From: Escherichia phage phi92
Sequence record: NC_023693.1
Length of the DNA: 64,000 bases
Reading direction: 5' to 3' (one strand)
Part shown: positions 48,982 to 64,000 of the stretch, one piece after another
Layout: each line of letters starts with the position of its first letter
Numbering within the stretch: the stretch's first letter is position 1
Notes under the pieces: generated by a model
The model's input: the letters and a program-made list of their open reading frames with translations, nothing else
The model's database searches: none
What the model was told of the DNA's origin: nothing
Position numbers and translations under genes: made by a program

Positions 48982-48993
48982 AAAGGGGTTAAA

Positions 48994-50121: not shown

Positions 50122-50135
50122 GTAAGCCAGCAAAT

Positions 50136-50160: not shown

Positions 50161-50195
50161 TGCATTAATGCCAGATTTAATAAGAGGAGTAGTAG

Positions 50196-51386
50196 ATGGC
50201 AGCACCAAAATCATGGGAACAATATAAAGAAGAGTGTCAACCAATAGCAGAGAGTAAGCAAATCCAAATCTTAGGATGGACGGGAGAATGGAAAGGGAAC
50301 AAGACTAAACTTAAGCTATCTTGCTCTGATCATGGAGAGTGGAACACCACGAACATTAATGATTTTAAGAATGGACGTGGTTGTCCGGCATGTACAAGTA
50401 ATAAGTCGTTAACATGGGAAACAGAATTGCCGATCTTAGAAGAGATAGCACAGAAGAAGGGGTATCAAGTGTTAGGGTACGTTGGAGAATGGAAAGGGGT
50501 TAATACAAAACTTGATTTGTTGTGTCATTGTGGGAATAGATGGCAAAGTACAATTATTAAGACATTTAAACGTGTAAATGGTTGTCCACAGTGTAGAATA
50601 GAGAAGGTAAAGCAAGCCAGTACGAAGTCAGATGATGAAAGGATCGCCTCTTTCCTTGCTAAGCGGGATTATCCAGAAGGAACTATCTTTAAACGATCTG
50701 ATCGGACTACCTTGCAAGGTCGTGCAGTTTATTGGTTTGTGTATTGCCCTATCTGTGCACAAGATGAAATAACGAAAGCTGGGTTATGTAGTGGATGGTT
50801 TGAAAGTACAGCAGGGGATTTGCAAAAAGGGACTGCCGCTTGTCGTTGTAGTAAGTCCCCTAAATACACAGACGATCAGAATACATTCCGTGCAATGAAG
50901 GTATGCGAGGATAACGGTTATCAGTTTGTTGGTTGGGTTGATAAGGTAGGAACACAGTCTAAGTTTAAATATCTGTGTCCAGAACACGGGGTACAAATTA
51001 TAACATTGGGTAGTATGGTTAGGGGTCATGGATGCCCTGAATGTGCTGGTAATAGTCAACAGCAATTATATATTAACATTGTTAAAGATAATGATATTAC
51101 CGTTGCTCTTAAGTTTGGCATAGCTAAAGATAGCGACAGGCGATTAAACAGTCAAAATAGCCGTAATCTGTTTTTTATGGAGCGTATTTGTTTATATGAT
51201 TTTAGTACAGTGAAACAATGTAAGGCTACTGAAAGAGCTATAAAGAAAAAATTAAAAACTGGTATTTTAACGGCAAGAGAGTTGAAAGACGGTTATACAG
51301 AAACAGTAAGTGTTTCTGATTTGGAAAATCTTCAAAAAATTATTACACAATATGGTGGCAAATTGGTATATAGTAAGGAGGTGTAA
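50196..51386 (+). CDS. zinc-ribbon repeat protein with C-terminal T5orf172 (GIY-YIG-like) domain
   Basis: Repeated units GW.GEWKG..TKL.L.C..HG.W...GCP.C; C-terminal LYINIVK...ALKFGIAKDSDRRLNSQN. Confidence 0.5.
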   Translation: MAAPKSWEQYKEECQPIAESKQIQILGWTGEWKGNKTKLKLSCSDHGEWNTTNINDFKNGRGCPACTSNKSLTWETELPILEEIAQKKGYQVLGYVGEWKGVNTKLDLLCHCGNRWQSTIIKTFKRVNGCPQCRIEKVKQASTKSDDERIASFLAKRDYPEGTIFKRSDRTTLQGRAVYWFVYCPICAQDEITKAGLCSGWFESTAGDLQKGTAACRCSKSPKYTDDQNTFRAMKVCEDNGYQFVGWVDKVGTQSKFKYLCPEHGVQIITLGSMVRGHGCPECAGNSQQQLYINIVKDNDITVALKFGIAKDSDRRLNSQNSRNLFFMERICLYDFSTVKQCKATERAIKKKLKTGILTARELKDGYTETVSVSDLENLQKIITQYGGKLVYSKEV

Positions 51387-51938
51387 ATGCGGATTACTGA
51401 TAAGTATGTGTTCTTCTTCTCGGCAAAAGATGAATTTAGCAACTGGTATCTATCATCTTTTATTGAACCTTTAGCACCCAAGTATAATAACTCTATTACA
51501 AGTTCTGTTGAATTTACTTGTGTGGAACAATATATGATGTGGAGAAAAGCATGTTTGTTTTATGATTACAATATTGCATCTTCTATTTTAATCGGAGATC
51601 TCAGATATACAGGAGAAAAAGAACAAGCATATTATAAGCGACTAGGTAGATTAGTTAAAGATTATGATGAAGACACCTGGACTTCTTTACGGGAGAAGAT
51701 TGTCAAACGTGGTTTGTATCTTAAATACACACAAAATGAAGATCTCAAAAATAAACTTATCGCTTACGCAGATAAGGAGTTCGTAGAGGCAAGCCCCTAT
51801 GATTCTATTTATGGTATCAAAATGGGGATGTGGGATCGGGACGTGGAAAATAAGGATTGTTGGAAAGGACAAAATCTTTTAGGAAAATGGCATACAGACC
51901 TTGCTGTTTATCTAAAAACACAATCTGATATTTCCTGA
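51387..51938 (+). CDS. NADAR (YbiA-like) domain protein
   Basis: FFFSAKDEFSNWYLSSF, EQYMMWRKA and EASPYDSIYGIKMG blocks match NADAR signature positions; RBS aaggagg. Confidence 0.5.
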   Translation: MRITDKYVFFFSAKDEFSNWYLSSFIEPLAPKYNNSITSSVEFTCVEQYMMWRKACLFYDYNIASSILIGDLRYTGEKEQAYYKRLGRLVKDYDEDTWTSLREKIVKRGLYLKYTQNEDLKNKLIAYADKEFVEASPYDSIYGIKMGMWDRDVENKDCWKGQNLLGKWHTDLAVYLKTQSDIS

Positions 51939-52154
51939 TATTTTGAAAATTTTTATTTTTATAAAAAGGGGTGTGGGTTTCATGTACGGAAATTCACCCT
52001 CTGCACAGTATACCCAGAGTAAGTATTATTCTATACTCTGTTAATAAAGTATTTAATTTGTTTGTTGGACTATGGTATCTGGTTTTTAAAAGACACATTA
52101 TCTCTTAACTACTATTTATAACAGAACAGTAAAATCATTTTTATAAAAAGGACA

Positions 52155-52355
52155 AAATTATTTAAAGTTTTTACTAGATTTTTGGCTACAAATTTTGAAA
52201 ATGAAAAGTTCAAGTTTGGTCAAAATTATTTAAAGTTTTTGTACGTATTTCTATCCAGATTTTGAAAATGAAAACTTCAATTTTTTAAAAATTCCCCAGT
52301 TTATTTAAAGTTTTTTTGCCTTTTTCCGTAGAAAAATCAAAAATGAAAAGTTCAA
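52155..52355. repeat. three tandem imperfect direct repeats (iterons, about 70-75 bp)
   Basis: Each unit contains TTATTTAAAGTTTTT ... TTTGAAAATGAAAA(G/C)TTCAA. Confidence 0.6.
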
Positions 52356-52378
52356 TTTCGTGTTTTTATGGGTGTGCG

Positions 52379-52500
52379 GATGATAATCATTCTCATTTGT
52401 AAATGAGAATCATTATCATTTAATTATGTAAGTGATAATCATTCTCACTAAGAGAATGAGAATCATTAGCAAATGAGAATTTTTCTCATTTAGAGAATAA
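52379..52500. promoter_or_regulatory. cluster of palindromic operator-like sites (Fur-box-like)
   Basis: GATAATCATTCTCATTTGTAAATGAGAATCATTATC near-perfect 36-bp palindrome, plus GATAATCATTCTCA...GAATGAGAATCATTAGC and AAATGAGAATTTTTCTCATTT. Confidence 0.45.
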
Positions 52501-52753
52501 CGCGCAGGGGTGGTGTTTGTCTCGCGCTCCCGTGTCCCCTCGCCATACAATAAGAATAGCATAACCAACAACAAAAGCAAGCGATTATTTTTATCTTTAC
52601 ATTTCTTTACAAATTTATTTTAGACGAGCTACCGGCGATCAACCTTCCAACCAGTAGTGCCCTGGTATGTTAGCCCCGCCTTTACGCCGTGGGGGTGGCG
52701 CTTCCTCTTCTGTATGTAAAACAGTATAAGCCCGATCCCTGGGCTTGTCAAGA

Positions 52754-53020
52754 TTATTTTTTGTTTTCTTGCCAGGATAGGACACCTAACCAAAAATACA
52801 TGTCGCCCCGCGCCCCTGGTGGGATCTTGCTTTCCCCGCCGCCACTGCAAGCCCATAGATAACCATTTGCGAACGTATCAAAATGATCTATCTCTTCCAC
52901 CTTATGATCGCCCAGGTTGAGAACGGTTTCAACCTTTAAGCCCGTTGCGCTTGCTACCTGGTGCACCGTGCCGCCTTGCCAGCCCAATGAGTGCATGAGG
53001 TGTGAAGTAGTATTTGTCAT
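52754..53020 (-). CDS. hypothetical ORF in GC-rich island (uncertain)
   Basis: 88 aa ORF with weak RBS; local GC content visibly higher than the surrounding phage DNA. Confidence 0.25.
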   Translation of the reverse strand: MTNTTSHLMHSLGWQGGTVHQVASATGLKVETVLNLGDHKVEEIDHFDTFANGYLWACSGGGESKIPPGARGDMYFWLGVLSWQENKK

Positions 53021-53131
53021 GGTATCGCCCTTTCTTTGATGTGCGCCCTGGTTGGCGCGGTAGAAAGATAATAGCCCTTTCCTTTATAGATAGCAAGCAA
53101 AAAAGAAATGAAAAAAGATTAAAAAAAGGGG

Positions 53132-53160
53132 TTGACGTTCCTCACCTGGTAGCGTATTAT
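53132..53160 (+). promoter_or_regulatory. sigma70-like promoter
   Basis: TTGACG, 17-bp spacer, TATTAT. Confidence 0.4.
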
Positions 53161-53287
53161 TCATCTTGTCGAGGGGGGCGAGGCACAACGACAATAAACA
53201 AAAGGAGGGCGCAATGCAGGACGGGCAAAGGTGAGGATCTCCACAATCCACCGTCACAATAACATTACTTATAAAAGGTTGATAACG

Positions 53288-53392
53288 ATGATCAAGAAAG
53301 AAAACAGCTTGACGGTTGGAACGATTAACGCTATTTTGTTAGCCGTTCCAGTGTGGATCACTGTAGCAATTGTTGTTTCAATCATTCTATAA
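53288..53392 (+). CDS. small membrane peptide (34 aa)
   Basis: MIKKENSLTVGTINAILLAVPVWITVAIVVSIIL; below track size cut-off. Confidence 0.35.
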   Translation: MIKKENSLTVGTINAILLAVPVWITVAIVVSIIL

Positions 53393-53402
53393 GGCGTACA
53401 CT

Positions 53403-53684
53403 ATGAGCAAGGTAATTAATCATAAAGAGTTAAGCCCTACCCTTTCAATGAGTGAATGTACCGATGGTTTTTGGCTGTATGATGATACGCGCGGCATGAA
53501 TTTAGCCATGCGTGAAAAAACAGAAGAGGCGGCGTATATTAAAGCCCTGGAATACTACCAACGACGACTACAGGAAGTAGAAAGTAATTATAAAAGCCTG
53601 AAATCAAAGGTTGATCATTTTGTCGGTCAAGTAGTGGAAGAGGAAGAAGATCACTATTGCGAACGGTGCGGATCATATAGCTGA
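53403..53684 (+). CDS. hypothetical early protein
   Basis: Start set to ATG (MSKVINHK); track ORF starts upstream in the same frame. Confidence 0.4.
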   Translation: MSKVINHKELSPTLSMSECTDGFWLYDDTRGMNLAMREKTEEAAYIKALEYYQRRLQEVESNYKSLKSKVDHFVGQVVEEEEDHYCERCGSYS

Positions 53685-53693
53685 AAAAGATTG

Positions 53694-53750
53694 TTGACAA
53701 CGTTTGAAAAAGTAGTAATATGTATCACATAGGGCGGCAATAGTGCCGCT
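53694..53750 (+). promoter_or_regulatory. early promoter + conserved leader hairpin (cassette 1)
   Basis: TTGACA, 16 bp, TAATAT, then GGCGGCA-ATAG-TGCCGCT hairpin. Confidence 0.55.
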
Positions 53751-53773
53751 CATAACAGAAGAGAGAAATAATC

Positions 53774-54046
53774 ATGGCATCATATAGCGCATCAATGATC
53801 GTAATGGGTATCACTGGTAAACCTATGTGCGGTGGCGGATCTTTCGCTAATATTAATATTGATGGGCGTTTATCCCTGGATGCAGCGATCACCGTGGCAC
53901 GGGAAACATTTAAAAAAGAATGTAATTTCAATAAGCAAGATTATTTAGGTTTCGCTATTGAAAAAACCGCGCGCTTTGTGGATTATAAAAGCCCGAAAAT
54001 GATCGACACTACACTAAAAGCGCAAGATGTAGCGTTTTTGCTTTAA
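53774..54046 (+). CDS. hypothetical early protein
   Basis: 90 aa ORF downstream of cassette 1. Confidence 0.45.
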   Translation: MASYSASMIVMGITGKPMCGGGSFANINIDGRLSLDAAITVARETFKKECNFNKQDYLGFAIEKTARFVDYKSPKMIDTTLKAQDVAFLL

Positions 54047-54049
54047 GGT

Positions 54050-54109
54050 TTGACACTGAAAAATAATTGGGTAATATATACCACATAAGGCGGGAAATGG
54101 TTTCCCGCC
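54050..54109 (+). promoter_or_regulatory. early promoter + leader hairpin (cassette 2)
   Basis: TTGACA, 16 bp, TAATAT, then GGCGGGAAA-TGG-TTTCCCGCC. Confidence 0.55.
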
Positions 54110-54134
54110 AGGCCATCAAAGAAAGGGTAACACA

Positions 54135-54497
54135 ATGAGCAAGCAAATCAATACTATCATGTTAAACCTGGTATCTTTCCGCGACGACGTGAAAAATCTT
54201 TCGCGTGAAGCAGTGGATGCACGGATCGAAAGCTATCGCACGCAGATCGCAACATTGCCGCTAAAATGTGATCAACATGCCGCTAATATGATGCTTAATG
54301 CTATGCTTAAAAAGATGATTCAGTGTGATCTTACCCTGGCTTATGAATATGCTGGCGATCTCTTTGTAACGTATAATAAGCCCGTTCCAGGTATGAGCAC
54401 CACGGAAGAATTGCATGCCTTAAATCTGCGACAAGATGCATGGGATAACATGCGCCGTGTTATGGTATGGGTAGAAAGCGGTAAAATTTACGAATAA
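54135..54497 (+). CDS. hypothetical early protein
   Basis: 120 aa ORF, RBS aagaaaggg. Confidence 0.45.
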   Translation: MSKQINTIMLNLVSFRDDVKNLSREAVDARIESYRTQIATLPLKCDQHAANMMLNAMLKKMIQCDLTLAYEYAGDLFVTYNKPVPGMSTTEELHALNLRQDAWDNMRRVMVWVESGKIYE

Positions 54498-54503
54498 AAA
54501 CGG

Positions 54504-54557
54504 TTGACATTGCACTAAAACCTGATAAGCTATCTTAAAGCGGGAATTGTTCCCGCT
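54504..54557 (+). promoter_or_regulatory. early promoter + leader hairpin (cassette 3)
   Basis: TTGACA, 16 bp, TAAGCT, then AGCGGGAA-TTG-TTCCCGCT. Confidence 0.5.
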
Positions 54558-54575
54558 TACATAGGATAAAACTTT

Positions 54576-54722
54576 ATGAAACAATATGTAATGAGTATTC
54601 ACACCAAAAACGGCGCTACTGTTACGACTCCGGCACGGTTTGCACTTGTAAACCGTTGCAAGAGACTAAAACGAGAGTTAAAAAATAACCGTGCAACGGG
54701 CTTTAAACGCTGGGGAGGATAA
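54576..54722 (+). CDS. small basic protein (48 aa)
   Basis: MKQYVMSIHTKNGATVTTPARFALVNRCKRLKRELKNNRATGFKRWGG; its end provides RBS ggagga for the next gene. Confidence 0.4.
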   Translation: MKQYVMSIHTKNGATVTTPARFALVNRCKRLKRELKNNRATGFKRWGG

Positions 54723-54724
54723 TC

Positions 54725-54985
54725 TTGTTTTTTCTAAAAGTTTTTGATAATGTGATCGCTTTTGAACATGCTACAACGTTCAACCTGGCGAGATACGCTA
54801 TCAGGTTTAAAGATAATGTTTATCCCCGTGCTGGCGGCGGTTACACTATTTTTAATCATCGTAATGCGCAACTAACAGATATAACGAATCCAGATCCTGG
54901 AGTGTATCGCATAGGCTGGCTACCGTCAAAAGACGCTGCAAGCATGTTTAAGGTGTGTAAACTACTAACAGAAGAGGCGAACTAG
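54725..54985 (+). CDS. hypothetical early protein (TTG start)
   Basis: 86 aa; TTG start 5 nt after RBS GGAGGA; translationally coupled to the preceding small ORF. Confidence 0.4.
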   Translation: MFFLKVFDNVIAFEHATTFNLARYAIRFKDNVYPRAGGGYTIFNHRNAQLTDITNPDPGVYRIGWLPSKDAASMFKVCKLLTEEAN

Positions 54986-54986
54986 C

Positions 54987-55541
54987 ATGGGGCGTGAATA
55001 TGTGATCCAGTCCTGGGTAAAGCATGATGCTAATGATCCGCGCATAATACCAGACGACATGATCGATCACATGGTAGGGTATAGCGGGGAGCAGATAGGA
55101 AATCGAGCGGCAAAGAGCAACGGCAACACCAGGACGCGATCCGTTCGCCCTGGATGGCTGGCGAATGGTAACGCTGACATTGCAAGCGCCGCAGATCCAA
55201 GCGATGATGCTAAAAATAATCCCTTATACAGCATTGATCCGGCTTTTAAGGTGTTAGAAGAGTATCCCGCTAAATTAGCCGCACTAGATAAGGCATACGA
55301 AGAAAAGCGCATGGCATGGACTGTATACAACACCGCTAAAATGGTGCTAGATGCAAAATTGATTAAAGCCCAGGAGAAGATCAATAAACTTGTTACCATA
55401 GCGCAAGAGGAAGACCAGGACGACCAGGAGGAAGAGGAAGAAATCATGCCTAACCTGGAAGAGGAAGAGATCCAGCCATACATGCCGACGGAAGAGGAAA
55501 AAAGACAAGCCTTAAAAAATTACGAAAATTGTATTGTGTAA
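54987..55541 (+). CDS. hypothetical protein with strongly acidic C-terminus
   Basis: 184 aa ending QEEDQDDQEEEEEIMPNLEEEEIQPYMPTEEE. Confidence 0.45.
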   Translation: MGREYVIQSWVKHDANDPRIIPDDMIDHMVGYSGEQIGNRAAKSNGNTRTRSVRPGWLANGNADIASAADPSDDAKNNPLYSIDPAFKVLEEYPAKLAALDKAYEEKRMAWTVYNTAKMVLDAKLIKAQEKINKLVTIAQEEDQDDQEEEEEIMPNLEEEEIQPYMPTEEEKRQALKNYENCIV

Positions 55542-55544
55542 GGC

Positions 55545-55600
55545 TTGACATATGCAAACAAGCCCCGTAATATATACCACATAGAGCGGGGCAACGCCTC
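55545..55600 (+). promoter_or_regulatory. early promoter + weaker leader hairpin (cassette 4)
   Basis: TTGACA, 17 bp, TAATAT, then GGGGC-AAC-GCCTC. Confidence 0.45.
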
Positions 55601-55621
55601 AAAGGTGAAATAAAAAATCAC

Positions 55622-55649
55622 TTGACACCTGAAATCAGTAAGCTATAAT
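55622..55649 (+). promoter_or_regulatory. consensus sigma70 promoter (no hairpin)
   Basis: TTGACA, 16-bp spacer, TATAAT (perfect consensus), tandem to cassette 4. Confidence 0.55.
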
Positions 55650-55686
55650 GCTTATATAAATTAAAGCGTTACTAAGGAATAAAATC

Positions 55687-56052
55687 ATGGCTAAAAATAT
55701 CAATGTTTCTGCTTATGCTACCCTGGCTAACACTGCTAAAATTGAACTATCCAGCATTGAAGCGGTACATATTAGCGCCCGTCGCTGGTTTCAAAAGTCT
55801 TATGGTAATACTTATTTCTCTTTGATGGTTGACGTTGAGATCGGCGGTAAACTGATTGAAGTCGTTAACGTTCCGTTTCAATATGGTTATGGTGATCATT
55901 TTGATACCGTCGCCCTGGAAGAGTTTAGCAAGGTTATCAACCTGGAAGGTAAAGACTTTTCAAATTATGCTTACCTTTCCCGTTTTTGCCGTGACAATGG
56001 GATCGCTGTATACAGTCATGCAAGCGATGTTAAACGTAAAAAAGATTTATAA
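55687..56052 (+). CDS. hypothetical early protein
   Basis: 121 aa ORF, RBS aaggaa. Confidence 0.45.
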   Translation: MAKNINVSAYATLANTAKIELSSIEAVHISARRWFQKSYGNTYFSLMVDVEIGGKLIEVVNVPFQYGYGDHFDTVALEEFSKVINLEGKDFSNYAYLSRFCRDNGIAVYSHASDVKRKKDL

Positions 56053-56058
56053 AAAGCA

Positions 56059-56116
56059 TTGACAGCACGAATAAAAAGCATATAATACTTATATCGAGAG
56101 CGGGAATAGTTCCCGC
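56059..56116 (+). promoter_or_regulatory. early promoter + leader hairpin (cassette 5)
   Basis: TTGACA, 16 bp, TATAAT, then GCGGGAA-TAG-TTCCCGC. Confidence 0.55.
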
Positions 56117-56140
56117 CTCACTGAAAAAGAGATTAACATC

Positions 56141-56380
56141 ATGGCTAAATCTAAAATGTACAACGGTCACAAAAATAAAACTCATTGGAATGTAAGCCTT
56201 TGGATCAACAACGATGAAGGTTTTTATAATCTTGCGCGTGAATTTATCGCAGCTAACACCAATAAGAATGACGCAGCGCGGGATATGATGTTATTTCTTG
56301 AAAGTATGGATCAAGATAAAACGCCAGACGGTTACAAGTTCAGTAAAACTGCAATCCGTGCCGCTATGGTAGGAATGTAA
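56141..56380 (+). CDS. hypothetical early protein
   Basis: 79 aa ORF. Confidence 0.45.
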   Translation: MAKSKMYNGHKNKTHWNVSLWINNDEGFYNLAREFIAANTNKNDAARDMMLFLESMDQDKTPDGYKFSKTAIRAAMVGM

Positions 56381-56389
56381 TAAAATAGC

Positions 56390-56449
56390 TTGACACTGTT
56401 TTTTATTCTGGTATAGTTTATCACATAGGGCGGGAAATGGTTTCCCGCC
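56390..56449 (+). promoter_or_regulatory. early promoter + leader hairpin (cassette 6)
   Basis: TTGACA, 16 bp, TATAGT, then GGCGGGAAA-TGG-TTTCCCGCC. Confidence 0.55.
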
Positions 56450-56471
56450 AAATCAAAGAAAGGTTATAATT

Positions 56472-56699
56472 ATGGCTATCGTTATTGTTCGCGTATCCGG
56501 TACGGTTGGAAGCTCCCAGGTAGTAGCAGTTATCACAGAGAAGAAAGGGGATGATCTTCACTCTTCCTTGAATAGCTGGGCGGTCGCTAATTTTGGTCAG
56601 TGGTCGAGCGTCGAGTATATCGAATCCTACCAGGTGCCGACGATTAGCCTAACCGATCTAAATGTTGATCGCTTGTTGTGCCTGGATGCATTAAACTAA
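56472..56699 (+). CDS. hypothetical early protein
   Basis: 75 aa ORF. Confidence 0.45.
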   Translation: MAIVIVRVSGTVGSSQVVAVITEKKGDDLHSSLNSWAVANFGQWSSVEYIESYQVPTISLTDLNVDRLLCLDALN

Positions 56700-56707
56700 A
56701 AATAATC

Positions 56708-56764
56708 TTGACAAGATAACTAAAATTAGTAAAATGTAATTCATAGGGCGGCAATAGTGCCGCT
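56708..56764 (+). promoter_or_regulatory. early promoter + leader hairpin (cassette 7)
   Basis: TTGACA, 16 bp, TAAAAT, then GGCGGCA-ATAG-TGCCGCT. Confidence 0.55.
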
Positions 56765-56785
56765 CATAGTGAGAGAGATTATCAA

Positions 56786-57001
56786 ATGGCTAATATCCGC
56801 ACACTGTTAAAAAATGCAAAGCAGGTTTTATTTTCTGATCACGATCATTTCAATAAAGACATTACAGGCGTGAAAAATCTTAAAGATGTAAAGGATGTAA
56901 TAGGTATTCGCGGATCTTTACGTAAAGGTGACATATACGGTAACAAGGTGCAATATAAACTGTCAAAAGATTATGATTTTACTTTGACATTTATTTCATA
57001 A
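56786..57001 (+). CDS. hypothetical early protein
   Basis: 71 aa ORF. Confidence 0.45.
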   Translation: MANIRTLLKNAKQVLFSDHDHFNKDITGVKNLKDVKDVIGIRGSLRKGDIYGNKVQYKLSKDYDFTLTFIS

Positions 57002-57007
57002 AACCGC

Positions 57008-57068
57008 TTGCAATACTGCAAAAATAAAGTAAACTGTATTCATCAAGGCGGTGGAATAGCCCACCGCC
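57008..57068 (+). promoter_or_regulatory. early promoter + leader hairpin (cassette 8)
   Basis: TTGCAA, 16 bp, TAAACT, then GGCGGTGG-AATAGC-CCACCGCC. Confidence 0.5.
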
Positions 57069-57092
57069 TAACAAAGAGAAGAGGAAAACATC

Positions 57093-57263
57093 ATGATCAC
57101 TTTCGCTACCCGTGAAGCCGCTCGCAACGTTGCACGTAAAGTTAATGCCGCCAACCTGGGCGCTACGCTTAAAGCCCCGGTAAAAGATGAATCAGGTAAA
57201 TGGATCTTTCCTGGTCTGCGTCACGCTGATAAGCTGGGAACATTAACGTTAAAAAACAAATAA
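57093..57263 (+). CDS. small hypothetical protein (56 aa)
   Basis: MITFATREAARNVARKVNAANLGATLKAPVKDESGKWIFPGLRHADKLGTLTLKNK; RBS gaggaa; below track size cut-off. Confidence 0.4.
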   Translation: MITFATREAARNVARKVNAANLGATLKAPVKDESGKWIFPGLRHADKLGTLTLKNK

Positions 57264-57270
57264 TATCCGT

Positions 57271-57329
57271 TTGACAGTAGCATCATTTAGAAGTAAAGTA
57301 ACAACAACGGCGGGGAATGGTTTCCCGCC
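57271..57329 (+). promoter_or_regulatory. early promoter + leader hairpin (cassette 9)
   Basis: TTGACA, 17 bp, TAAAGT, then GGCGGGGAA-TGG-TTTCCCGCC (one G-T position). Confidence 0.55.
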
Positions 57330-57349
57330 AACAATAAAGAGATAAGATT

Positions 57350-57709
57350 ATGAAATCAGTAAAAGCAATTAAAACTTACATTGTGTCGGCTATTTCTTTT
57401 GAAGGTACTACAACAGAAAAAGAAAAGATCACCGAACTGATGCGCCGTTTTAAGTCTGAATACTGGTATCAATCTAATCGTGATCGTTATAATAACAACA
57501 TGGTACAAGCTGTTAAAAGCTGGTTACAAGGTTTACCGTCAGAAATAAATATTGCTTTTAATTATAACGAGATCGATCACTTATTAATCGAATGGAAGTG
57601 TATAAAAGAAACAAGCAAAGAAACAACCGTTACCCGTGAGCGGGAAAATTATTGGTTATATATTGCAAGCATGATCGTAACTTTGGCAAAATATCATAAA
57701 GTAGCGTAA
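57350..57709 (+). CDS. hypothetical early protein
   Basis: 119 aa ORF. Confidence 0.45.
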   Translation: MKSVKAIKTYIVSAISFEGTTTEKEKITELMRRFKSEYWYQSNRDRYNNNMVQAVKSWLQGLPSEINIAFNYNEIDHLLIEWKCIKETSKETTVTRERENYWLYIASMIVTLAKYHKVA

Positions 57710-57723
57710 TCGAGAGGAAAAAC

Positions 57724-57861
57724 ATGAACGCATCACAGCAGATCGAAAAATTCAACCGCAGCAAGGCGCGTAAAGATTGGAACGAAGAGATCACCAAAAA
57801 AGGCGACAAGCGGAACAAAACAAAAAGAGATCGCAGCACAAAAAGATACTGGAACGAATAA
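57724..57861 (+). CDS. small basic protein (45 aa)
   Basis: RBS gagagga; MNASQQIEKFNRSKARKDWNEEITKKGDKRNKTKRDRSTKRYWNE. Confidence 0.35.
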   Translation: MNASQQIEKFNRSKARKDWNEEITKKGDKRNKTKRDRSTKRYWNE

Positions 57862-57867
57862 CAAAAA

Positions 57868-57890
57868 GGGCGCAATAAGCGCCCTTTTAG
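57868..57890 (+). terminator. rho-independent terminator
   Basis: GGGCGC-AATAA-GCGCCC followed by TTTT. Confidence 0.55.
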
Positions 57891-57978
57891 CTTATATAGG
57901 GGCTTGTTACCCATAGGCAATGGTAACGCCAGGGCAAGCCTATAAATCAACGTTAGACGGCTTTACAGGAGCTTTAAA

Positions 57979-58161
57979 ATGAGATTAGAAGAAATAAGCA
58001 AGGCACTAGCCCAGGGGCAAAGGTTATGCGCCAGATATCGTGATCAATATGGCTTCATAACTAGCGGCGTGATCCTGGGGATTGAAGGCAATAAGATTTT
58101 TATTGACACGTTGAAAAACGTTGTATATAGTGACAATATAATCTCAATAAAACATATATGA
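57979..58161 (+). CDS. hypothetical protein
   Basis: 60 aa ORF, RBS aggag. Confidence 0.4.
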   Translation: MRLEEISKALAQGQRLCARYRDQYGFITSGVILGIEGNKIFIDTLKNVVYSDNIISIKHI

Positions 58162-58169
58162 GGCAAGAA

Positions 58170-58571
58170 ATGAAAAAATTATTGATCGCTGGTTTAATCT
58201 CTTTTGGTATGGTTGGAACATCTAGCGCGGCGATATCCTCCACAGTAGCAGAATTAAGCGCCGTTGATGCAATGGAAAACGTCATGCTTATTAATAATGC
58301 GATCCCCGATGAAATCATGGAGGATTCACACATGATCGCTTATGGTGCTGTTACACAACTAACGGCAAAAATAGATAAATCTATTGTTAATGGCTTAAAT
58401 GAAGATGTACCATGTGAAATTATTACCAGTGTGCTGACTACTCAAAATTTTACACCGTGGTTAAAAAGTATTCAAAAAGTACACAGTACAGCCGCAGATC
58501 GTAGCAATGAAAAACTAGTGTCAGCACTTGCAACGTATACCCTAGCAAAATGCACTGAAATAAAAGATTGA
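58170..58571 (+). CDS. secreted/periplasmic protein
   Basis: Start set to MKKLLIAGLISFGMVGTSSAA (signal peptide) with RBS gagg. Confidence 0.45.
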   Translation: MKKLLIAGLISFGMVGTSSAAISSTVAELSAVDAMENVMLINNAIPDEIMEDSHMIAYGAVTQLTAKIDKSIVNGLNEDVPCEIITSVLTTQNFTPWLKSIQKVHSTAADRSNEKLVSALATYTLAKCTEIKD

Positions 58572-58596
58572 CAGCATAGAAAGCACGTTATAAGAT
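58568..58596 (+). promoter_or_regulatory. sigma70-like promoter (no hairpin)
   Basis: TTGACA, 17 bp, TAAGAT. Confidence 0.4.
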
Positions 58597-58618
58597 ACAC
58601 ACAACAAAGGAGAACTAC

Positions 58619-58921
58619 ATGAACGGCATAGCTAAAACGTTTTTTCTTTTTTCTGGTGTAAATGATCCATCAATAAAAGTCGATAGTGTAAAAGAAAACA
58701 ATACTATCACCGCTAAATTGTTTCAAGATGAAACAAATAACGTGCTAATCATTAATCTTAAAGAAATAACGAAAGGTTATTATACTATTGCTTACCATGC
58801 AATCTATCATGCTGGTACTAGTGAGGAAGTGCAAACAAGCAACAACGAAAGCGCGGCGCTACCTGGTGATCTGGTGCTGGGCGTTATCAGTTTAATTGTC
58901 AATGATTTTTTTAAGGAGTAA
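58619..58921 (+). CDS. hypothetical protein
   Basis: 100 aa ORF, RBS aaggag. Confidence 0.45.
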   Translation: MNGIAKTFFLFSGVNDPSIKVDSVKENNTITAKLFQDETNNVLIINLKEITKGYYTIAYHAIYHAGTSEEVQTSNNESAALPGDLVLGVISLIVNDFFKE

Positions 58922-58925
58922 AACC

Positions 58926-59021
58926 ATGCCCTATTTACATTTATTTTTCGGGATCTTATTGTCAGGATCTTTTTTCTTCTGTATACTTGTTTCTATTGTA
59001 AACCACGTTTTAAGACATTAA
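58926..59021 (+). CDS. small membrane peptide (31 aa)
   Basis: MPYLHLFFGILLSGSFFFCILVSIVNHVLRH; RBS aaggag. Confidence 0.35.
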   Translation: MPYLHLFFGILLSGSFFFCILVSIVNHVLRH

Positions 59022-59030
59022 GGAAACAGC

Positions 59031-59150
59031 ATGAAAATTATTCCCGTACAATATAGCGTAATAAATCCAGCATACGAGGAAGGAAGGAAAACAAGCATGG
59101 TTTTATGTTATATTGCTACTATAACCATGTTGTTATATATTGTGTTTTAA
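59031..59150 (+). CDS. small membrane peptide (39 aa)
   Basis: MKIIPVQYSVINPAYEEGRKTSMVLCYIATITMLLYIVF; RBS taaggaa. Confidence 0.35.
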   Translation: MKIIPVQYSVINPAYEEGRKTSMVLCYIATITMLLYIVF

Positions 59151-59179
59151 TAGGTTTTATAGTTGTACGCTTTAAAGGC

Positions 59180-59207
59180 TTGACAATTTTTTGTTATGCT
59201 TTAAAAT
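59180..59207 (+). promoter_or_regulatory. sigma70-like promoter (no hairpin)
   Basis: TTGACA, 16 bp, TAAAAT. Confidence 0.45.
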
Positions 59208-59250
59208 ATATCTTGAAAACGGCAAAGGCCGCAAACAAAAGGGTAAAATT

Positions 59251-59574
59251 ATGAAATCTGTGATCGGTGTTTATTTGGATAACTCTGATTTTTTCTATCA
59301 TCGCGCGCGTTTACTTGATGCTATTGAAATGATAGAATCAGGCTTTAAAGAGTATCGCCTTGCACATGATGACCTGGAAGCATTACAGGGCAATAGTGTT
59401 TTTACATTGCAAGCGAAAGCACTATGCAAAAGCCGGATCGACATTGCGAGCAAAAAGATAGAACGCGGCATGTCCTGGTTGCGCACCGCAGAAATCAACA
59501 TGGGGCAATGGTACGGCGAAAACTTAGAAAATAAACATGCTTTTGTCAATGTAGAAAATATTGAAGATTATTGA
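59251..59574 (+). CDS. hypothetical early protein
   Basis: Start set to ATG (MKSVIGVY) with RBS aaaaggg. Confidence 0.45.
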   Translation: MKSVIGVYLDNSDFFYHRARLLDAIEMIESGFKEYRLAHDDLEALQGNSVFTLQAKALCKSRIDIASKKIERGMSWLRTAEINMGQWYGENLENKHAFVNVENIEDY

Positions 59575-59636
59575 TTGACAGCACACTGAACTGGTAGTAT
59601 ATTGTATCTCATAGAGCGGGGAAATGGTTTCCCCGC
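59575..59636 (+). promoter_or_regulatory. early promoter + leader hairpin (cassette 10)
   Basis: TTGACA, 17 bp, TATATT, then GCGGGGAAA-TGG-TTTCCCCGC. Confidence 0.55.
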
Positions 59637-59656
59637 CTTAAAAGAAGAGATAAGCT

Positions 59657-59941
59657 ATGAAGATCACAAAAGCACTTTCCAACTATGCAGCACGTCGCGG
59701 CTTATGTTTAACCGTTGAAAACCTGGGGAAAGAAGATTTTTTGTGCTTTTGGGAGCTTGAGAATGATAATGAGTGGATCTTCTCTTATTCTATCTGCGAA
59801 GATCAAAACGGTTGTTTATTAACCTGGCGCGGTAATATCTATCTACCGGAAGAAATCAAAGAAGAATTGCCAGGCACGATCATGACTGAGAAACAGCTTA
59901 AGGAAGTGATTAATTTTGTAGGGCAAAACATTAAAAAATAA
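59657..59941 (+). CDS. hypothetical early protein
   Basis: 94 aa ORF. Confidence 0.45.
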   Translation: MKITKALSNYAARRGLCLTVENLGKEDFLCFWELENDNEWIFSYSICEDQNGCLLTWRGNIYLPEEIKEELPGTIMTEKQLKEVINFVGQNIKK

Positions 59942-59942
59942 T

Positions 59943-60000
59943 TTGACACTAGGCAAACAACGTAGTAAAGTTTATCACATAGGGCGGCAATAGTGCCGCT
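59943..60000 (+). promoter_or_regulatory. early promoter + leader hairpin (cassette 11)
   Basis: TTGACA, 17 bp, TAAAGT, then GGCGGCA-ATAG-TGCCGCT. Confidence 0.55.
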
Positions 60001-60022
60001 CACAACTAAAAGAGAAATCAGC

Positions 60023-60217
60023 ATGGCGCTTAAAAAACTAACAAGCAATACTCGTTGGGATGAAATCGACGGGGAAGTATACATTTTCGCCCGTAAACCA
60101 GGTGATCAAAAATGGTCAAAGGCTTTTACTTGCCACCCTGCAACAATAGACCTGATAAAAAGGGAAGGTCTACGTGAAGCAGTAGCGAGAAGTTTACTGA
60201 TCCCTTATAAAAAATAG
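60023..60217 (+). CDS. hypothetical early protein
   Basis: Start set to ATG (MALKKLTSN). Confidence 0.45.
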   Translation: MALKKLTSNTRWDEIDGEVYIFARKPGDQKWSKAFTCHPATIDLIKREGLREAVARSLLIPYKK

Positions 60218-60218
60218 T

Positions 60219-60279
60219 TTGACAATATGCTGTTATCTGGTAAAGTGTACGACATAGGGCGGGGCAATAAGGCAACGCC
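60219..60279 (+). promoter_or_regulatory. early promoter + degenerate leader hairpin (cassette 12)
   Basis: TTGACA, 16 bp, TAAAGT, then GGCGGGGCAATAAGGCAACGCC with only a short GGCG/CGCC stem. Confidence 0.4.
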
Positions 60280-60301
60280 ACACATCAGAAAGGGAAAGAT
60301 T

Positions 60302-60538
60302 ATGACTATAGCAACAGTATTAACCGCCGTTAAAACCGCAGAATCATCCGGCTTGCATGTTGAGATTATAGATCAACCAGGTGGCGATCTCCTTGTCCAG
60401 GTTTACCCGCCGAAAGTAGGGGATGATTATTATTGGTGCTATTCTGATACGTTCGAACAAGTAGACACGAAAGCGATCACGGCTTTTATTTTAAAAGCTA
60501 TTGAAGAAAATAACTTTCATTATAACATCAATCAATAA
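60302..60538 (+). CDS. hypothetical early protein
   Basis: Start set to ATG (MTIATVLTAV) with RBS aagggaaag. Confidence 0.45.
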   Translation: MTIATVLTAVKTAESSGLHVEIIDQPGGDLLVQVYPPKVGDDYYWCYSDTFEQVDTKAITAFILKAIEENNFHYNINQ

Positions 60539-60558
60539 ACCATAAGCGGGGTAGCATC

Positions 60559-60663
60559 ATGTTAGAGAAAATTTTCACGGTTGTAATAGTGGGCCTGGCG
60601 TTATCGGTTGGATTGGTTGCAACTATGGCTAACATGATCCTATCTTCCCACGGTATCGGCTAA
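60559..60663 (+). CDS. small membrane peptide (34 aa)
   Basis: MLEKIFTVVIVGLALSVGLVATMANMILSSHGIG. Confidence 0.3.
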   Translation: MLEKIFTVVIVGLALSVGLVATMANMILSSHGIG

Positions 60664-60677
60664 AAGAGAAACACAAC

Positions 60678-61064
60678 ATGAAAACAGAAATCATTATTGA
60701 AATCATCAACGGTTATAAAGAAGCCTTTATTTTTGCCGAACCAGCGACGGATCACAATGGGGAATATATTGAGAATCTAGACGATTATGATTTTTCTCCT
60801 AGCGCCCTGAAACGTATTACCAGCGATGTGACCGCCTTTTGTAGTGCCAATGTTGCCGCTATCTCTGAGGCAATGAGCGACGGCGCTACAGCAAACCAGA
60901 TCGGGAATGATTTACATTTCACCCGTAACGGTCACGGCGTAGGCTTTTGGGATCGCCCTGAAATATACACTACTAACACCGCCAACCGCCTAACAAATGC
61001 AGCTAAATTAATGCCATCGGTGCATGCTTACATTGGTGAAGATAATTTGATTTATATTGAATAA
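60678..61064 (+). CDS. hypothetical early protein
   Basis: 128 aa ORF. Confidence 0.45.
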   Translation: MKTEIIIEIINGYKEAFIFAEPATDHNGEYIENLDDYDFSPSALKRITSDVTAFCSANVAAISEAMSDGATANQIGNDLHFTRNGHGVGFWDRPEIYTTNTANRLTNAAKLMPSVHAYIGEDNLIYIE

Positions 61065-61070
61065 AAAGTA

Positions 61071-61129
61071 TTGACACCGATCCCCAATATGGTACTATTT
61101 ACCACGTAGGCGGGAAGTGGTTTCCCGCT
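61071..61129 (+). promoter_or_regulatory. early promoter + leader hairpin (cassette 13)
   Basis: TTGACA, 16 bp, TACTAT, then GGCGGGAAG-TGG-TTTCCCGCT (two G-T positions). Confidence 0.55.
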
Positions 61130-61186
61130 AAATGAGAGATTATCATTATGTTCGATATCAGCCTGGACAAATAAGAGATTCCCATA

Positions 61187-61732
61187 ATGAACGCCTTGAT
61201 CGACAAAAAAACCTTTCTTAATAACGCCTACGTTAATGAACTACTTTCATCCGGTCGCTGGGTTAGCCACGGATCTGACCTTCAAACATGGCTAGATGAG
61301 TGCGACGAGGTTCCCGCCGCCTTTTCAGGTAAAAATTTGCAGCAGGTTATAAATGATACTGAATTTTTAAACTTCTTCCGTGAGTGGTTAAGCTGCCGCT
61401 TTGATTTTGCTATGAAATATCTGATCCAAGACATTAACCAACACACGGTTATTCGGCGGGCGGTATACCTAACCCCGGCACAAAAGGCCGAAATATTGCC
61501 CGGTTCTTTTGTTAATGTTGGTAAATATTGGACAGTATCCAGGACTGTGGAGCCATACGGGGCCACCTACACAAAGGATCGGGAGATAGTAACAATCACC
61601 ACAGAGTTAGACCTTAATTCAATCGACCTTATTCAGACGATGATCTCTCGCATGGACTATATTAATGGAGATTATGAAATGGAGATACAAACAAAGGAAA
61701 ACTTACCTGTAAAAATTCTCGCTATAGAATAG
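61187..61732 (+). CDS. hypothetical early protein
   Basis: 181 aa ORF. Confidence 0.45.
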   Translation: MNALIDKKTFLNNAYVNELLSSGRWVSHGSDLQTWLDECDEVPAAFSGKNLQQVINDTEFLNFFREWLSCRFDFAMKYLIQDINQHTVIRRAVYLTPAQKAEILPGSFVNVGKYWTVSRTVEPYGATYTKDREIVTITTELDLNSIDLIQTMISRMDYINGDYEMEIQTKENLPVKILAIE

Positions 61733-61755
61733 CCCGCTGCCCGGCGGGTTTTCTT
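61732..61755 (+). terminator. rho-independent terminator
   Basis: GCCCGC...GCGGG stem followed by TTTTCTT. Confidence 0.5.
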
Positions 61756-61788
61756 ACAGTTTTTTACAATTCTACCTATTGACACCGG

Positions 61789-61839
61789 ATCGCCCTTATA
61801 CTAAGATGTATCACGTAAGGCGGGAAGTGGTTTCCCGCC
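61789..61839 (+). promoter_or_regulatory. early promoter + leader hairpin (cassette 14)
   Basis: TTGACA, 17 bp, TAAGAT, then GGCGGGAAG-TGG-TTTCCCGCC. Confidence 0.55.
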
Positions 61840-61857
61840 AGATATAGGAGTCATATC

Positions 61858-62088
61858 ATGATCGAACAAATTAAACGCGCTGAGGCTATTAACGGTAATG
61901 TGATCTATTTTGTCAACAATAACGAAAAAGGCGTACCATATGCGGCGGTAATAGTACAGCCTGACGGCGATTATTGGTTTACTGTATACGGATCTTATTC
62001 TTTTGGGCGTCCAGTACATGATAAAATTTTGGAAGTAGCTAATCCCACTGGGAAGAATATCACAGTAGAAAAATTCTATGAAAAATAA
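61858..62088 (+). CDS. hypothetical early protein
   Basis: 76 aa ORF, RBS aggag. Confidence 0.45.
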   Translation: MIEQIKRAEAINGNVIYFVNNNEKGVPYAAVIVQPDGDYWFTVYGSYSFGRPVHDKILEVANPTGKNITVEKFYEK

Positions 62089-62163
62089 CTTGCTTTATAG
62101 CCTCTGTTAATTTATAGTTATCGTGTAGGGCAAACAATTTTAAACGGTAAACGAGGAATCTCC

Positions 62164-62547
62164 ATGAGCAATATCATCAACCTGGCGGCGACTGTAAACG
62201 GTAAAGATTTTAACGGCGCTGTAGATCGTGATCCTATGTGGTGCTTATCAGTGTTTAAAGGCGATCTGGTTGAAGTTAGAACAACCGAAGGGTATAGCGA
62301 TGATTATAAATGTGAGATTCATTTGCACAACTGGTACACGGGTAAAACTTATGCGCTGAATCATGCGTTTATCGGGAAAATTGAATATCGCGAGATGATC
62401 GACGAGGAAACCGGGCAAGATTTTAGCGACTATGTTTATATTCGTTCAGAAACATTAGCCGAACGTTTGATCGAGAAAATGAAAGCAAAAAATAAAATTA
62501 ATTTAACTCATTGGATTGATATAACAAACGATCCAGCTTATCAGTAA
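62164..62547 (+). CDS. hypothetical early protein
   Basis: 127 aa ORF, RBS gagga. Confidence 0.45.
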   Translation: MSNIINLAATVNGKDFNGAVDRDPMWCLSVFKGDLVEVRTTEGYSDDYKCEIHLHNWYTGKTYALNHAFIGKIEYREMIDEETGQDFSDYVYIRSETLAERLIEKMKAKNKINLTHWIDITNDPAYQ

Positions 62548-62563
62548 ATAACATTTCATACCA

Positions 62564-62589
62564 GGGCGCTTATTGCGCCCTTTCTTTTT
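62564..62589 (+). terminator. rho-independent terminator closing the early array
   Basis: GGGCGC-TTATT-GCGCCC followed by TTTCTTTTT. Confidence 0.6.
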
Positions 62590-62803
62590 ACCTAAATAAA
62601 GATGATAGCTTTTACCTATCAAAAACGTTCACCGAAAAAAGTGAATAGATCGCGGTATCGAGCTAATCAAGGAGCAGATGAACAACCATACCATGAAGAT
62701 CATAAGGCGCTTACAACGTGTTTTAGACCGCTTATTTTTAATTTCTCAATGTAACTATCGGGCAAAAACAGCCTTTTTCTTGTCTTTCCTCTTAAATGAT
62801 AAT

Positions 62804-63948
62804 CATTCTTATTTATAGCTGATTATTTATGCAATAAACTGCATAATGCAATAATGATAATCATTCTTAACTTAAGACCATCTAACCTATAAAATAATAA
62901 GCTATCTAACTAAATTAAACCTAATTATCTCACTTTTATTTATAACTTACTGTTATTATCTCATTGATAACATTGTATTAAACAACAATAACTAATATAA
63001 ATCATTACTAAGCTAACTATAATCTATCTAACCCTTAAAACTACAATTATAATCTATCAAATTGTTGCACAAAGTAACTATTAAATTGTTAGTAACATTA
63101 CTAAATAATTTACATCCTACTTATTTATGATCTAATCTTTACCTCCCTATCTATTACCTAAATAACCATTTCATGTAGTAATCATTTCATACAATAACTA
63201 TAACAAGAAATATAATTCGCAAGCGTATCATTAGCAGCCTATGCCGGACACATAGGCGGCTAATAATAACGCAACTACACACCCCACATAATAACCATCA
63301 CCGATAGTTATTATTTGTGCTTATGTAGCTTGCAACAATTGCAAGCGCAACAATATACGAGAGTATATTGTATTCCCTTACATTGTTGCGGTGCGTTATT
63401 ATTAGCTAATGTTTAGAACATTGGCTATAATATAAGCTAAATAATAAGCTATGCAATAATAAACATGGTGAATAATGACATTGATGATCATAATGCGCCA
63501 CCCTCCAGGGGGCGCTATGTGTACACAAAGAAATCTTTCTTGTCAAGAAAAATATCATCACTATTGCGCAAAATTATTTACATCTGAATAGATGATTTTT
63601 CATACTATTGCCCCCATAATTATCTTTATTTGTTACCCCTAAATATCCTATTTGTTGAGCCTACTTTCTTAAAAGCGCAATAAATCAGAATTATCTTGAT
63701 TTTTAGTCGGTTTTATAGTATAGAAAATATGTAAATGATAATCATTATCAGCTATCTTCCACGGGTGGCACTATTTCACGCCAGATCATTTCATTTGACA
63801 AGGTGTATATAGATGTTTAGACTTGCCAAGCCATTGATTTACTTAGAATTTATCTGTTTTGTTGTGAGTAGTACCTTTCTTGCTCAGAAAATAATCAAAA
63901 GTCTTATAAGTCATTGAATGATAATGCAAATGATAATTATTCTCATTG
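62804..63948. promoter_or_regulatory. non-coding AT-rich region with four Fur-box-like sites and short repeats
   Basis: AAATGATAATCATTCTTA at 62804 and 62852, AAATGATAATCATTATC at 63733, AATGATAATGCAAATGATAATTATTCTCATTG at 63916; recurring (A)TCTATCTAAC motifs; no ORF of 60 aa or more. Confidence 0.4.
63259..63406. repeat. nested inverted-repeat structure
   Basis: Exact 14-bp inverted repeat GCTAATAATAACGC / GCGTTATTATTAGC enclosing palindrome GCTTGCAA-CAA-TTGCAAGC and inverted repeat CGCAACAAT...ATTGTTGCG. Confidence 0.5.
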
Positions 63949-64000
63949 ATATTTGAGGGGGACGGTCGGCAGAAATCGGGGGGCGCTGAAAATCGCGTTA

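Follow-up and report, generated by a model that had tools for sequence, protein, structure and literature searches.

Five short open reading frames (ORFs), designated micro-ORFs A to E, lie in a dense + strand array of small genes that extends from ~47.4 kb to 62.6 kb of the window, the 64,000-nucleotide stretch of Escherichia phage phi92 (NC_023693.1) that was analysed. The window is that of a phi92-like myovirus of the genus Justusliebigvirus (subfamily Stephanstirmvirinae). Positions 58000-61000 share up to 97.5% identity with Escherichia phages alia, muut, VEcB, Paula and EmilieFrey (Bas61), and positions 48000-49100 share up to 99.3% identity with phage arall and others. Comparison with relatives indicates that A, B, D and E are real protein-coding genes that are conserved across genera. 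The micro-ORFs are as follows.

48356-48529, + strand, micro-ORF A, 57 aa, two hydrophobic segments separated by LEEIKK
53288-53392, + strand, micro-ORF B, 34 aa, one hydrophobic segment
58926-59021, + strand, micro-ORF C, 31 aa, one hydrophobic segment
59031-59150, + strand, micro-ORF D, 39 aa, one hydrophobic segment
60559-60663, + strand, micro-ORF E, 34 aa, one hydrophobic segment

An earlier note on this DNA had described the five as untracked ORFs with good start contexts that encode membrane peptides with one or two helices. All five are present in the ORF list, and each contains a segment of membrane-helix grade, with a maximum 17-residue Kyte-Doolittle hydropathy of 2.36-2.86. Good start contexts were found in A (GGGAGAAAGG), C (AAGGAG, 7 nt, ATG) and D (AAGGAA, 6 nt, ATG), whereas the contexts of B (AAAGG, 10 nt upstream) and E (GGGGTAG) are only moderate. 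The word untracked is apt for the length cut-off used in that note but not for public annotation, which includes PHROG families and GenBank coding sequences (CDSs). A is called in 5/5 annotated records covering it, and B, C and E are called in several GenBank records.

ATG-initiated ORFs of 28-59 aa in the + strand gaps of the array were compared with off-frame and antisense ORFs of this size. 5/8 of the former are membrane-like versus 8/46 of the latter (Fisher p = 0.015), which exceeds chance. Against a reading as membrane-peptide genes stands the tendency of T-rich sequence to give hydrophobic ORFs, as 17% of the off-frame ORFs are membrane-like. Because about 17% of random ORFs are hydrophobic by composition, hydrophobicity alone is weak evidence, and conservation decides. 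Conservation of the reading frames in relatives, on which the earlier note had rested the fate of its proposal, was found for 4/5 micro-ORFs (A, B, D and E), while C is conserved within one genus only. In A, B, D and E the frame is kept in diverged relatives and is under purifying selection.

A gives a full-length profile match to phrog_22950 (57/57, E = 7e-40) and is the orthologue of Phi92_gp219, as which it is labelled in W22 and PATM. Identity of the protein reaches 95% or more in 54 Justusliebigvirus records. Among seven relatives, no substitution was found in the 174 nt of A versus 4 in 60 nt of its flanks. A more distant homologue, again 57 aa long and with 38.6% identity, comes from Citrobacter phage Tr1, which is unclassified within the same subfamily.

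E likewise matches a PHROG family over its full length (phrog_14631, 34/34, E = 1e-22). Homologues were detected by tblastn in 227 phage records from Justusliebigvirus, Phapecoctavirus and Vequintavirus, with 59% identity in rV5. The motif G-x-x-ATMAN-x-ILSS-x-GIG is common to rV5_ev147 (MKQKLIDAVILVIALGIGLIATMANVILSSNGIG), isim and an IMG/VR contig (L006). The 17 substitutions in E are distributed over the three codon positions as 5, 2 and 10, and the C-terminal half carries five synonymous and no non-synonymous changes, compared with 48 substitutions in 60 nt of flanks. E appears to behave as a strongly constrained cassette in variable surroundings. A conserved 216-nt gene (assigned to pVOG VOG5365 in some records) comes next after E in most relatives, among them EmilieFrey, Paula, PsgM04F and the rV5-like phages. 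The window (60663-60678) and IMG/VR contig L005 lack it, and a 128-aa gene comes directly after E in both.

tblastn with B gave matches in 112 phage records, some of them from Phapecoctavirus and from Klebsiella phages. It consists of the N-terminal motif IKKENSLTVG followed by a single membrane helix. Even Klebsiella phage 05F01 retains the motif (MKFLIKKENSLTVGVLNGLICCIPFYFVLFIIFLVIKCA); the helix varies among hydrophobic residues. Forty-one distinct substitutions were counted, 11, 5 and 25 at the first, second and third codon positions, and 23 of them are synonymous. The peptide is 31, 34, 35 or 39 aa long across relatives with the frame retained in each case, and its ATG is retained between genera while the upstream sequence differs. 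B is absent from muut and W22, which marks it as an accessory gene.

D matches phrog_10979, a family labelled 'membrane protein', with residues 6-39 of D on positions 6-39 of the 39-position profile (E = 9.4e-8). In general the labels of the matched PHROG families are only 'unknown function' or 'membrane protein'. tblastn placed D in 109 records, about 55 of them from Justusliebigvirus and all of these frame-intact, and found homologues with 44-50% identity in Rosemountvirus, Phapecoctavirus and phage PsgM04F. Outside the genus the homologues are annotated as CDSs of 39-41 aa, and in Phapecoctavirus D lies downstream of a homologue of gp240, as it does in the window. Alignment by eye of the window peptide with WYA84299, BDU13352 (Phapecoctavirus-type) and WNT47305 (Rosemountvirus) revealed a common motif, Y-x-V-x-NPA-x-x-EGR, followed by a C-terminal helix. 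The sequences are MKIIPVQYSVINPAYEEGRKTSMVLCYIATITMLLYIVF in the window, MNKYTVEYTVENPAVSEGRKTTIAVGVIAFVITILSIIL in Phapecoctavirus and MVRCKYVVEYSVVNPAYAEGRAMSKLVGIFLIILMVLAYVF in Rosemountvirus. Within the genus, the N-terminal half of D has acquired two synonymous changes and V6I only. A word-indexed protein search with D, padded with two in-frame upstream residues, returned two near-identical clusters only, and the conserved stretch of D used as a DNA anchor in IMG/VR and metagenomes returned three loci. An internal start at Met23, 5 nt past the purine-rich run GAGGAAGGAAGG / GAGGAAGGAAGGAAAAC (EEGRK codons, 59085-59099), which might serve as an internal ribosome-binding site, would give a 17-aa peptide consisting of the helix only; this candidate was dropped since the methionine is not conserved in Phapecoctavirus or Rosemountvirus. 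A, B, D and E are probably conserved accessory genes shared with other genera.

The spacers of the array were scanned for promoters and structured elements. A promoter of the form TTGACA-N16-18-TAnnnT was found by consensus scan in 14/19 inter-gene spacers of 60-220 nt. These near-consensus promoters support early expression by the host polymerase. A GC stem-loop, GGCGGGRAAnnGTTTCCCGCC, occurs in five array spacers; there are 10 matches on both strands versus 0 expected by chance. The stem-loops resemble the promoter-plus-stem-loop cassettes of T4-type phages. Their positions are as follows.

54089-54109, 56429-56449, 57309-57329, 61109-61129 and 61819-61839, GC stem-loops, mostly just 3' of a near-consensus TTGACA promoter

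C lies between a homologue of Phi92_gp240 and D, in a region with these features.

58568-58596, + strand, sigma-70-type promoter TTGACA-17-TAAGAT upstream of gp240, found by consensus scan
58619-58921, + strand, Phi92_gp240 homologue, 100 aa, soluble, from the ORF list and the annotation of relatives

C is probably a translated, functional peptide gene, judging from its start, its fit to the spacer and its substitutions. The Shine-Dalgarno sequence AAGGAG (58913-58918) coincides with the last two codons of gp240, AAG GAG, and the ATG follows 7 nt on, 4 nt past the gp240 stop. Of the 22 other occurrences of this AAGGAG-7 nt-ATG motif in the whole window, 20 stand at the head of an ORF of 51 aa or more, so it is highly specific for real gene starts. 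The encoded peptide has one membrane helix (MPYLHLFFGILLSGSFFFCILVSIVNHVLRH). C fills 88% of the 109-nt spacer between gp240 and D, and this spacer contains neither an exact TTGACA promoter nor a GC stem-loop. One other spacer is equally spanned by an ORF, but that one has both promoter and stem-loop. Scans detected no canonical TTGACA promoter and no terminator-like site between the 58568 promoter and D, and the 58568-58596 promoter probably drives a gp240-C-D transcription unit.

The substitutions in C were examined for signs of coding. Their density is 7.3 per 100 nt, which is like that of the coding parts of the region (5-11) and unlike that of the promoter spacer at 59151-59250 (3.0). Three are synonymous and four non-synonymous, for an expected synonymous fraction of 0.21; gp240 has 10 and 6, respectively. 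Three synonymous changes fall in C's own frame versus 0 and 2 in the other two frames. The replacements S13T, I20M and R30K are conservative and P2H is not, and none of the four lowers hydrophobicity. The frame is intact in 16/16 covering sequences. Frame conservation cannot decide the status of C, because it occurs in a single genus and the members of that genus share 95% identity or more over the region.

A number of observations weigh against C as a gene and favour a chance ORF in a T-rich spacer, one that is hydrophobic by base composition and whose spacer may hold a weak internal promoter for D. The seven substitutions are too few to reveal selection and are statistically indistinguishable from neutral change. 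tblastn found C in Justusliebigvirus only. Its best PHROG match has E = 0.38, and it has no match in Pfam or NCBIfam. No homologue was returned by a word-indexed search of 5.8 billion proteins, with a 41-aa TTG-extended C as query. An exhaustive phmmer search of 1.84 billion representatives gave no true homologue, only a compositional match and the product of a deletion fusion. The former (P0003, 259 aa) is a repetitive hydrophobic protein and was rejected as compositional; the latter (P0004) is a fusion and so no homologue. A 10/12 promoter match, TTGTCA-17-TATACT, lies inside C at 58959-58987, and the 109-nt gap is within the length range of promoter-bearing array spacers (78-145 nt). In Phapecoctavirus the gp240 homologue has a different end (...NDGLFTA), the position of C is taken by a non-coding spacer with promoter and stem-loop, and D comes next. 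Finally, an ORF covering at least 85% of the C spacer arises in 6.2% of shuffled sequences. On the other side stand the start motif placed immediately behind gp240, the lack of the exact hexamer and stem-loop of typical spacers, the coding-like substitution density, the predominance of conservative replacements and the position of most synonymous changes in C's own frame. With these taken into account, a chance origin of C is unlikely.

A DNA comparison of C with the gp240-to-D spacer of Phapecoctavirus detected no similarity; 35% of the shuffled controls reached or exceeded the score. The Phapecoctavirus spacer 5' of D carries a stem-loop element, gggcggcgggaatagttccc, similar to those of the array.

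C could also be translated chiefly as a coupling ORF, which would pass ribosomes from gp240 to D with the peptide sequence free of selection. The geometry is suitable: the C stop codon TAA (59019-59021) overlaps the AAGGA of D (59020-59024), the D ATG follows 9 nt after the stop, gp240 and C are packed within 4 nt, and the interval from gp240 to D lacks a canonical promoter. In Phapecoctavirus, C is absent and D is served by a promoter of its own, and the near-neutral substitution pattern of C would also be expected if its peptide were unselected. In contrast, RNA folding revealed no significant structure over the D ribosome-binding site (z = -0.47 and +0.37), so there is no obvious need for unmasking, and the Shine-Dalgarno sequence of D is adequate by itself. 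The conservative nature of 3/4 replacements, with hydrophobicity lowered by none, also speaks against a mere coupling role. A pure coupling role is quite improbable. The same folding energies are like those of shuffled sequences, and a structured RNA leader or attenuator at the C-D junction was rejected for this reason. In phage JohannJBalmer (Bas62; L026), a 1-nt insertion after 58905 alters the last codons of gp240 and leaves it with a CDS of 297 nt instead of 303; C, immediately downstream, keeps both its AAGGAG-ATG start and its whole frame.

If C is a peptide gene, we can suggest tentatively, and with more doubt than conviction, that it is a young, lineage-specific one. In the ancestor of Justusliebigvirus it would have replaced the promoter-plus-stem-loop cassette found between gp240 and D in the sister genus, and so made D, until then under its own promoter, the last gene of a gp240-C-D operon. 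C and D, neighbouring single-helix peptides, might act jointly on a target in the host inner membrane. If true, C would be a case in which the acquisition of a hydrophobic micro-protein by a lytic phage can be traced.

A natural deletion bears on whether this part of the array is needed. A 24-kb metagenomic Justusliebigvirus contig (L030; ENA ERZ1305919 NODE_1182) aligns to window positions 56074-58998 and then to 61021-61128. The locus L030 3055-3156 carries a deletion of ~2.0 kb, corresponding to window 58999-61020, at the short microhomology gtatRCTTG. It removes the 3' end of C, D, E and the four genes between them, and creates P0004, in which the first 21 codons of C are fused to the last 12 codons of the gene at 60678-61064. 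If the contig is correctly assembled, the 3' end of C, D, E and the intervening genes would be dispensable for propagation, and a dispensable C-to-E block fits accessory early genes. It would also agree with the functional suggestion of the note, though it is no proof of it. Coverage of the contig is only 5.6x, and the deletion is possibly an assembly artefact, which detracts from the accessory interpretation.

A is probably a subunit of a module with a membrane protein and an AAA+ ATPase, a role suggested by gene order only. The genes directly downstream are as follows.

48544-48981, + strand, 145-aa multi-helix membrane protein, directly follows A
48994-50121, + strand, 375-aa AAA+ ATPase (Pfam AAA PF00004, E = 1.5e-9)

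The ATPase is annotated in relatives as 'FtsH-like protease' (BASEL annotations) or 'putative ATPase'. Three loci were compared for this trio: window 48356-50121, L020 2501-4229 and L016 20477-22218 (- strand). In phage Tr1 the order matches that of the window: after the A homologue come a gene homologous to that of the 145-aa membrane protein and a gene of 374 aa, about the length of the ATPase. Phapecoctavirus keeps the ATPase, and in place of the upstream pair it has a two-helix peptide of 53 aa that is not homologous to A, and a different protein of 119 aa.

The structural part of the earlier proposal holds, in that the micro-ORFs are short genes in a sigma-70-type early array and encode membrane peptides with one or two helices. 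As to function, it seems rather likely that they are small coding genes of a host-RNA-polymerase-driven early array whose products, inner-membrane peptides of 31-57 aa, modulate host envelope or membrane proteins. The near-consensus sigma-70 promoters suggest that unmodified host polymerase would transcribe the array immediately after infection. gp240, C and D are probably translated from one transcript, and each peptide is predicted to insert into the host inner membrane. This modulation would be early and non-essential and would serve either the takeover of the host or the exclusion of rival phages, with the peptides as putative anchored modulators of envelope functions of the host or of a competing phage. 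Superinfection exclusion is one plausible instance of such a role. As a starting assumption, the note's suggestion that such peptides act in superinfection exclusion or inhibit host membrane machines is reasonable.

The probable orientation of each peptide was deduced from the positive-inside rule. B and D, with KK and GRK before their helices, respectively, would be tail-anchored with the charged N-terminal motif in the cytoplasm and the C-terminus at the periplasmic face. E would have its N-terminus inside and its conserved tail outside, and C its C-terminus (NHVLRH) inside. A may form a two-helix hairpin with both ends inside. In B and D the conserved motif is proposed to bind a partner, with the freely varying helix serving only as an anchor. 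In E the conserved outer half of the helix and the short tail may make a contact within the membrane or in the periplasm. The polar motifs beside a variable helix in B and D, and the half-helix and tail in E, fit specific partner binding better than general membrane damage.

Comparison with known systems provides analogies of several kinds. phrog_22950 (A), phrog_10979 (D) and phrog_14631 (E) have the same lengths, the same helix architecture and the same small, mostly unnamed gene neighbours as the window peptides. There is no difference in kind, and as uncharacterised families they supply a name and no mechanism. T4 Imm (83 aa) and Sp (97 aa) are small inner-membrane exclusion proteins, not needed for growth, with their site of action at the envelope. 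They are likewise small and of membrane type, but they are larger than A-E and share no sequence relation with them, as A-E have no Pfam match at E up to 1; the Pfam library presumably contains a curated Imm model. The class of AcrZ, MgrB, MgtS, KdpF and CydX comprises peptides of 30-50 aa with a single helix, each of which binds a particular larger membrane protein and modulates it. The polar motif by a variable helix in B and D fits binding of a specific partner in this manner, though no homology was found in Pfam or NCBIfam and B and D are phage-encoded. Type I toxins (Hok/Gef, TisB, Ibs, Ldr) are similar to the micro-ORF peptides in length and hydrophobicity, with no Pfam or NCBIfam match between them. 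No sign of an antisense RNA partner, whether a terminator-like site or an Rfam family, was found at or near the five ORFs (47000-64000 for Rfam). The likeness of A-E to Imm and Sp, to regulators of the AcrZ/MgrB type and to type I toxins is one of analogy only.

The resemblance of 31-39 aa, strongly hydrophobic single-helix peptides to the Hok, TisB, Ibs and Ldr class raises the alternative that they are toxic, pore-forming or depolarising agents, like type I toxins or holin-like peptides, and not specific regulators of host membrane proteins. This is rather improbable. Searches of Pfam and NCBIfam with an E-value limit of 1 gave no match to any of the peptides. In B and D it is the polar motifs by the membrane that are conserved, not the helix, and E conserves ATMAN..ILSS..GIG. 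The genes are found in the early array rather than in a lysis cassette, and early depolarisation would harm the phage. Regulation of specific envelope or membrane proteins is the reading we prefer, and three further points count against it. With E-values up to 1 considered, A-E match nothing in Pfam or NCBIfam, and hence no characterised exclusion or toxin family contained in those libraries. The helix of D takes V24A, Y27C, T32A, Y36C and I37T within the genus, indicating loose constraint. A literature search found no transcriptome, ribosome-profiling or functional paper on the early genes of these genera.

D is called in 0/12 annotated Justusliebigvirus records inspected. Six of these 12 GenBank records call another frame, F, in its place. 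The features concerned are as follows.

59105-59254, + strand, frame F, 49 aa, called instead of D by six GenBank records
59180-59207, + strand, sigma-70-type promoter TTGACA-16-TAAAAT, 11/12 consensus matches, serves the gp241 homologue (59251-59574)

The records are those of EmilieFrey (Bas61), Antha, PaulScherrer (Bas60), 92CQ, JohannJBalmer (Bas62) and cardinal (MZ501063, MZ501100, MZ501084, PP925826, PV682554 and PQ567651). F is open in 10/11 aligned sequences, its stop overlaps the gp241 start (ATGA), and in the 46-nt overlap of D and F each frame has 2/6 synonymous changes, which makes the two indistinguishable there. Elsewhere they differ. F has no PHROG match or homologue, whereas D has a PHROG family and full-length homologues in three other phage groups. 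There is no Shine-Dalgarno sequence within 13 nt of the F ATG. F crosses the 59180-59207 promoter and its spacer (59151-59250), the most conserved segment of the region with 3 substitutions per 100 nt versus 5-11 in coding parts. A 1-nt insertion after 59186 in contig L005 puts F out of frame; the promoter tolerates it, with a spacing of 17 instead of 16 nt. F has two synonymous and six non-synonymous substitutions, and the changes are less conservative (Y12H, K34N, T27I). In Phapecoctavirus a different gene follows D. That F is the correct gene and D spurious is thus very improbable, and F was rejected as a mis-call on the basis of homologues, start, promoter overlap, frameshift and gene order in relatives. 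The call of F in place of D looks like a systematic gene-caller error.

Much of this was largely known, in that four conserved genes are held in databases as unnamed hypothetical proteins of a known kind of early array. What is new is modest, namely that D is missed and F mis-called in the genus, that short conserved motifs can be defined, and that C emerges as a genus-restricted candidate gene. The practical gain is also modest: real genes are sorted among the phi92-like micro-ORFs, and a recurring annotation error in Justusliebigvirus is corrected. The motifs IKKENSLTVG (B), Y-x-V-x-NPA-x-x-EGR (D) and ATMAN-x-ILSS-x-GIG (E) provide specific residues for mutation. Since E. coli K-12 is a host of Bas60-62, BASEL isolates that belong to this group, screens for phage-encoded membrane effectors could conveniently include the peptides. 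Until screened, they remain ordinary 'hypothetical membrane proteins'.

The early array of rV5 contains 88 mainly small ORFs, 33 sigma-70-like promoters and 15 membrane-domain proteins (Kropinski et al. 2013, PMC3606486). rV5-like arrays and the phi92-like window are alike in having dozens of small ORFs, near-consensus sigma-70 promoters and a subset with membrane domains (PMC3606486). In rV5-like phages the E homologue (rV5_ev147) is present and C is absent, and the paper gives these peptides no function.

The window array has a gap of ~1.35 kb at 51939-53287 that lacks a + strand gene, is locally GC-rich and contains several terminator-like hairpins. A - strand ORF lies within it at 52754-53020 (a 267-nt CDS in relatives), and repeat regions are annotated there by some relatives. 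No Rfam family or tRNA was found in window 47000-64000, this gap included, and an RNA-gene explanation for the micro-ORF loci was rejected for that reason.

UNVERIFIED records labelled 'Campylobacter phage' (MG065639, MG065645, MG065656, MG065689 and others) share ~97% identity with this E. coli Justusliebigvirus over 58600-59600 and up to 99.1% over 48000-49100. The Campylobacter host label of the MG065639-type records is probably wrong or the result of contamination.

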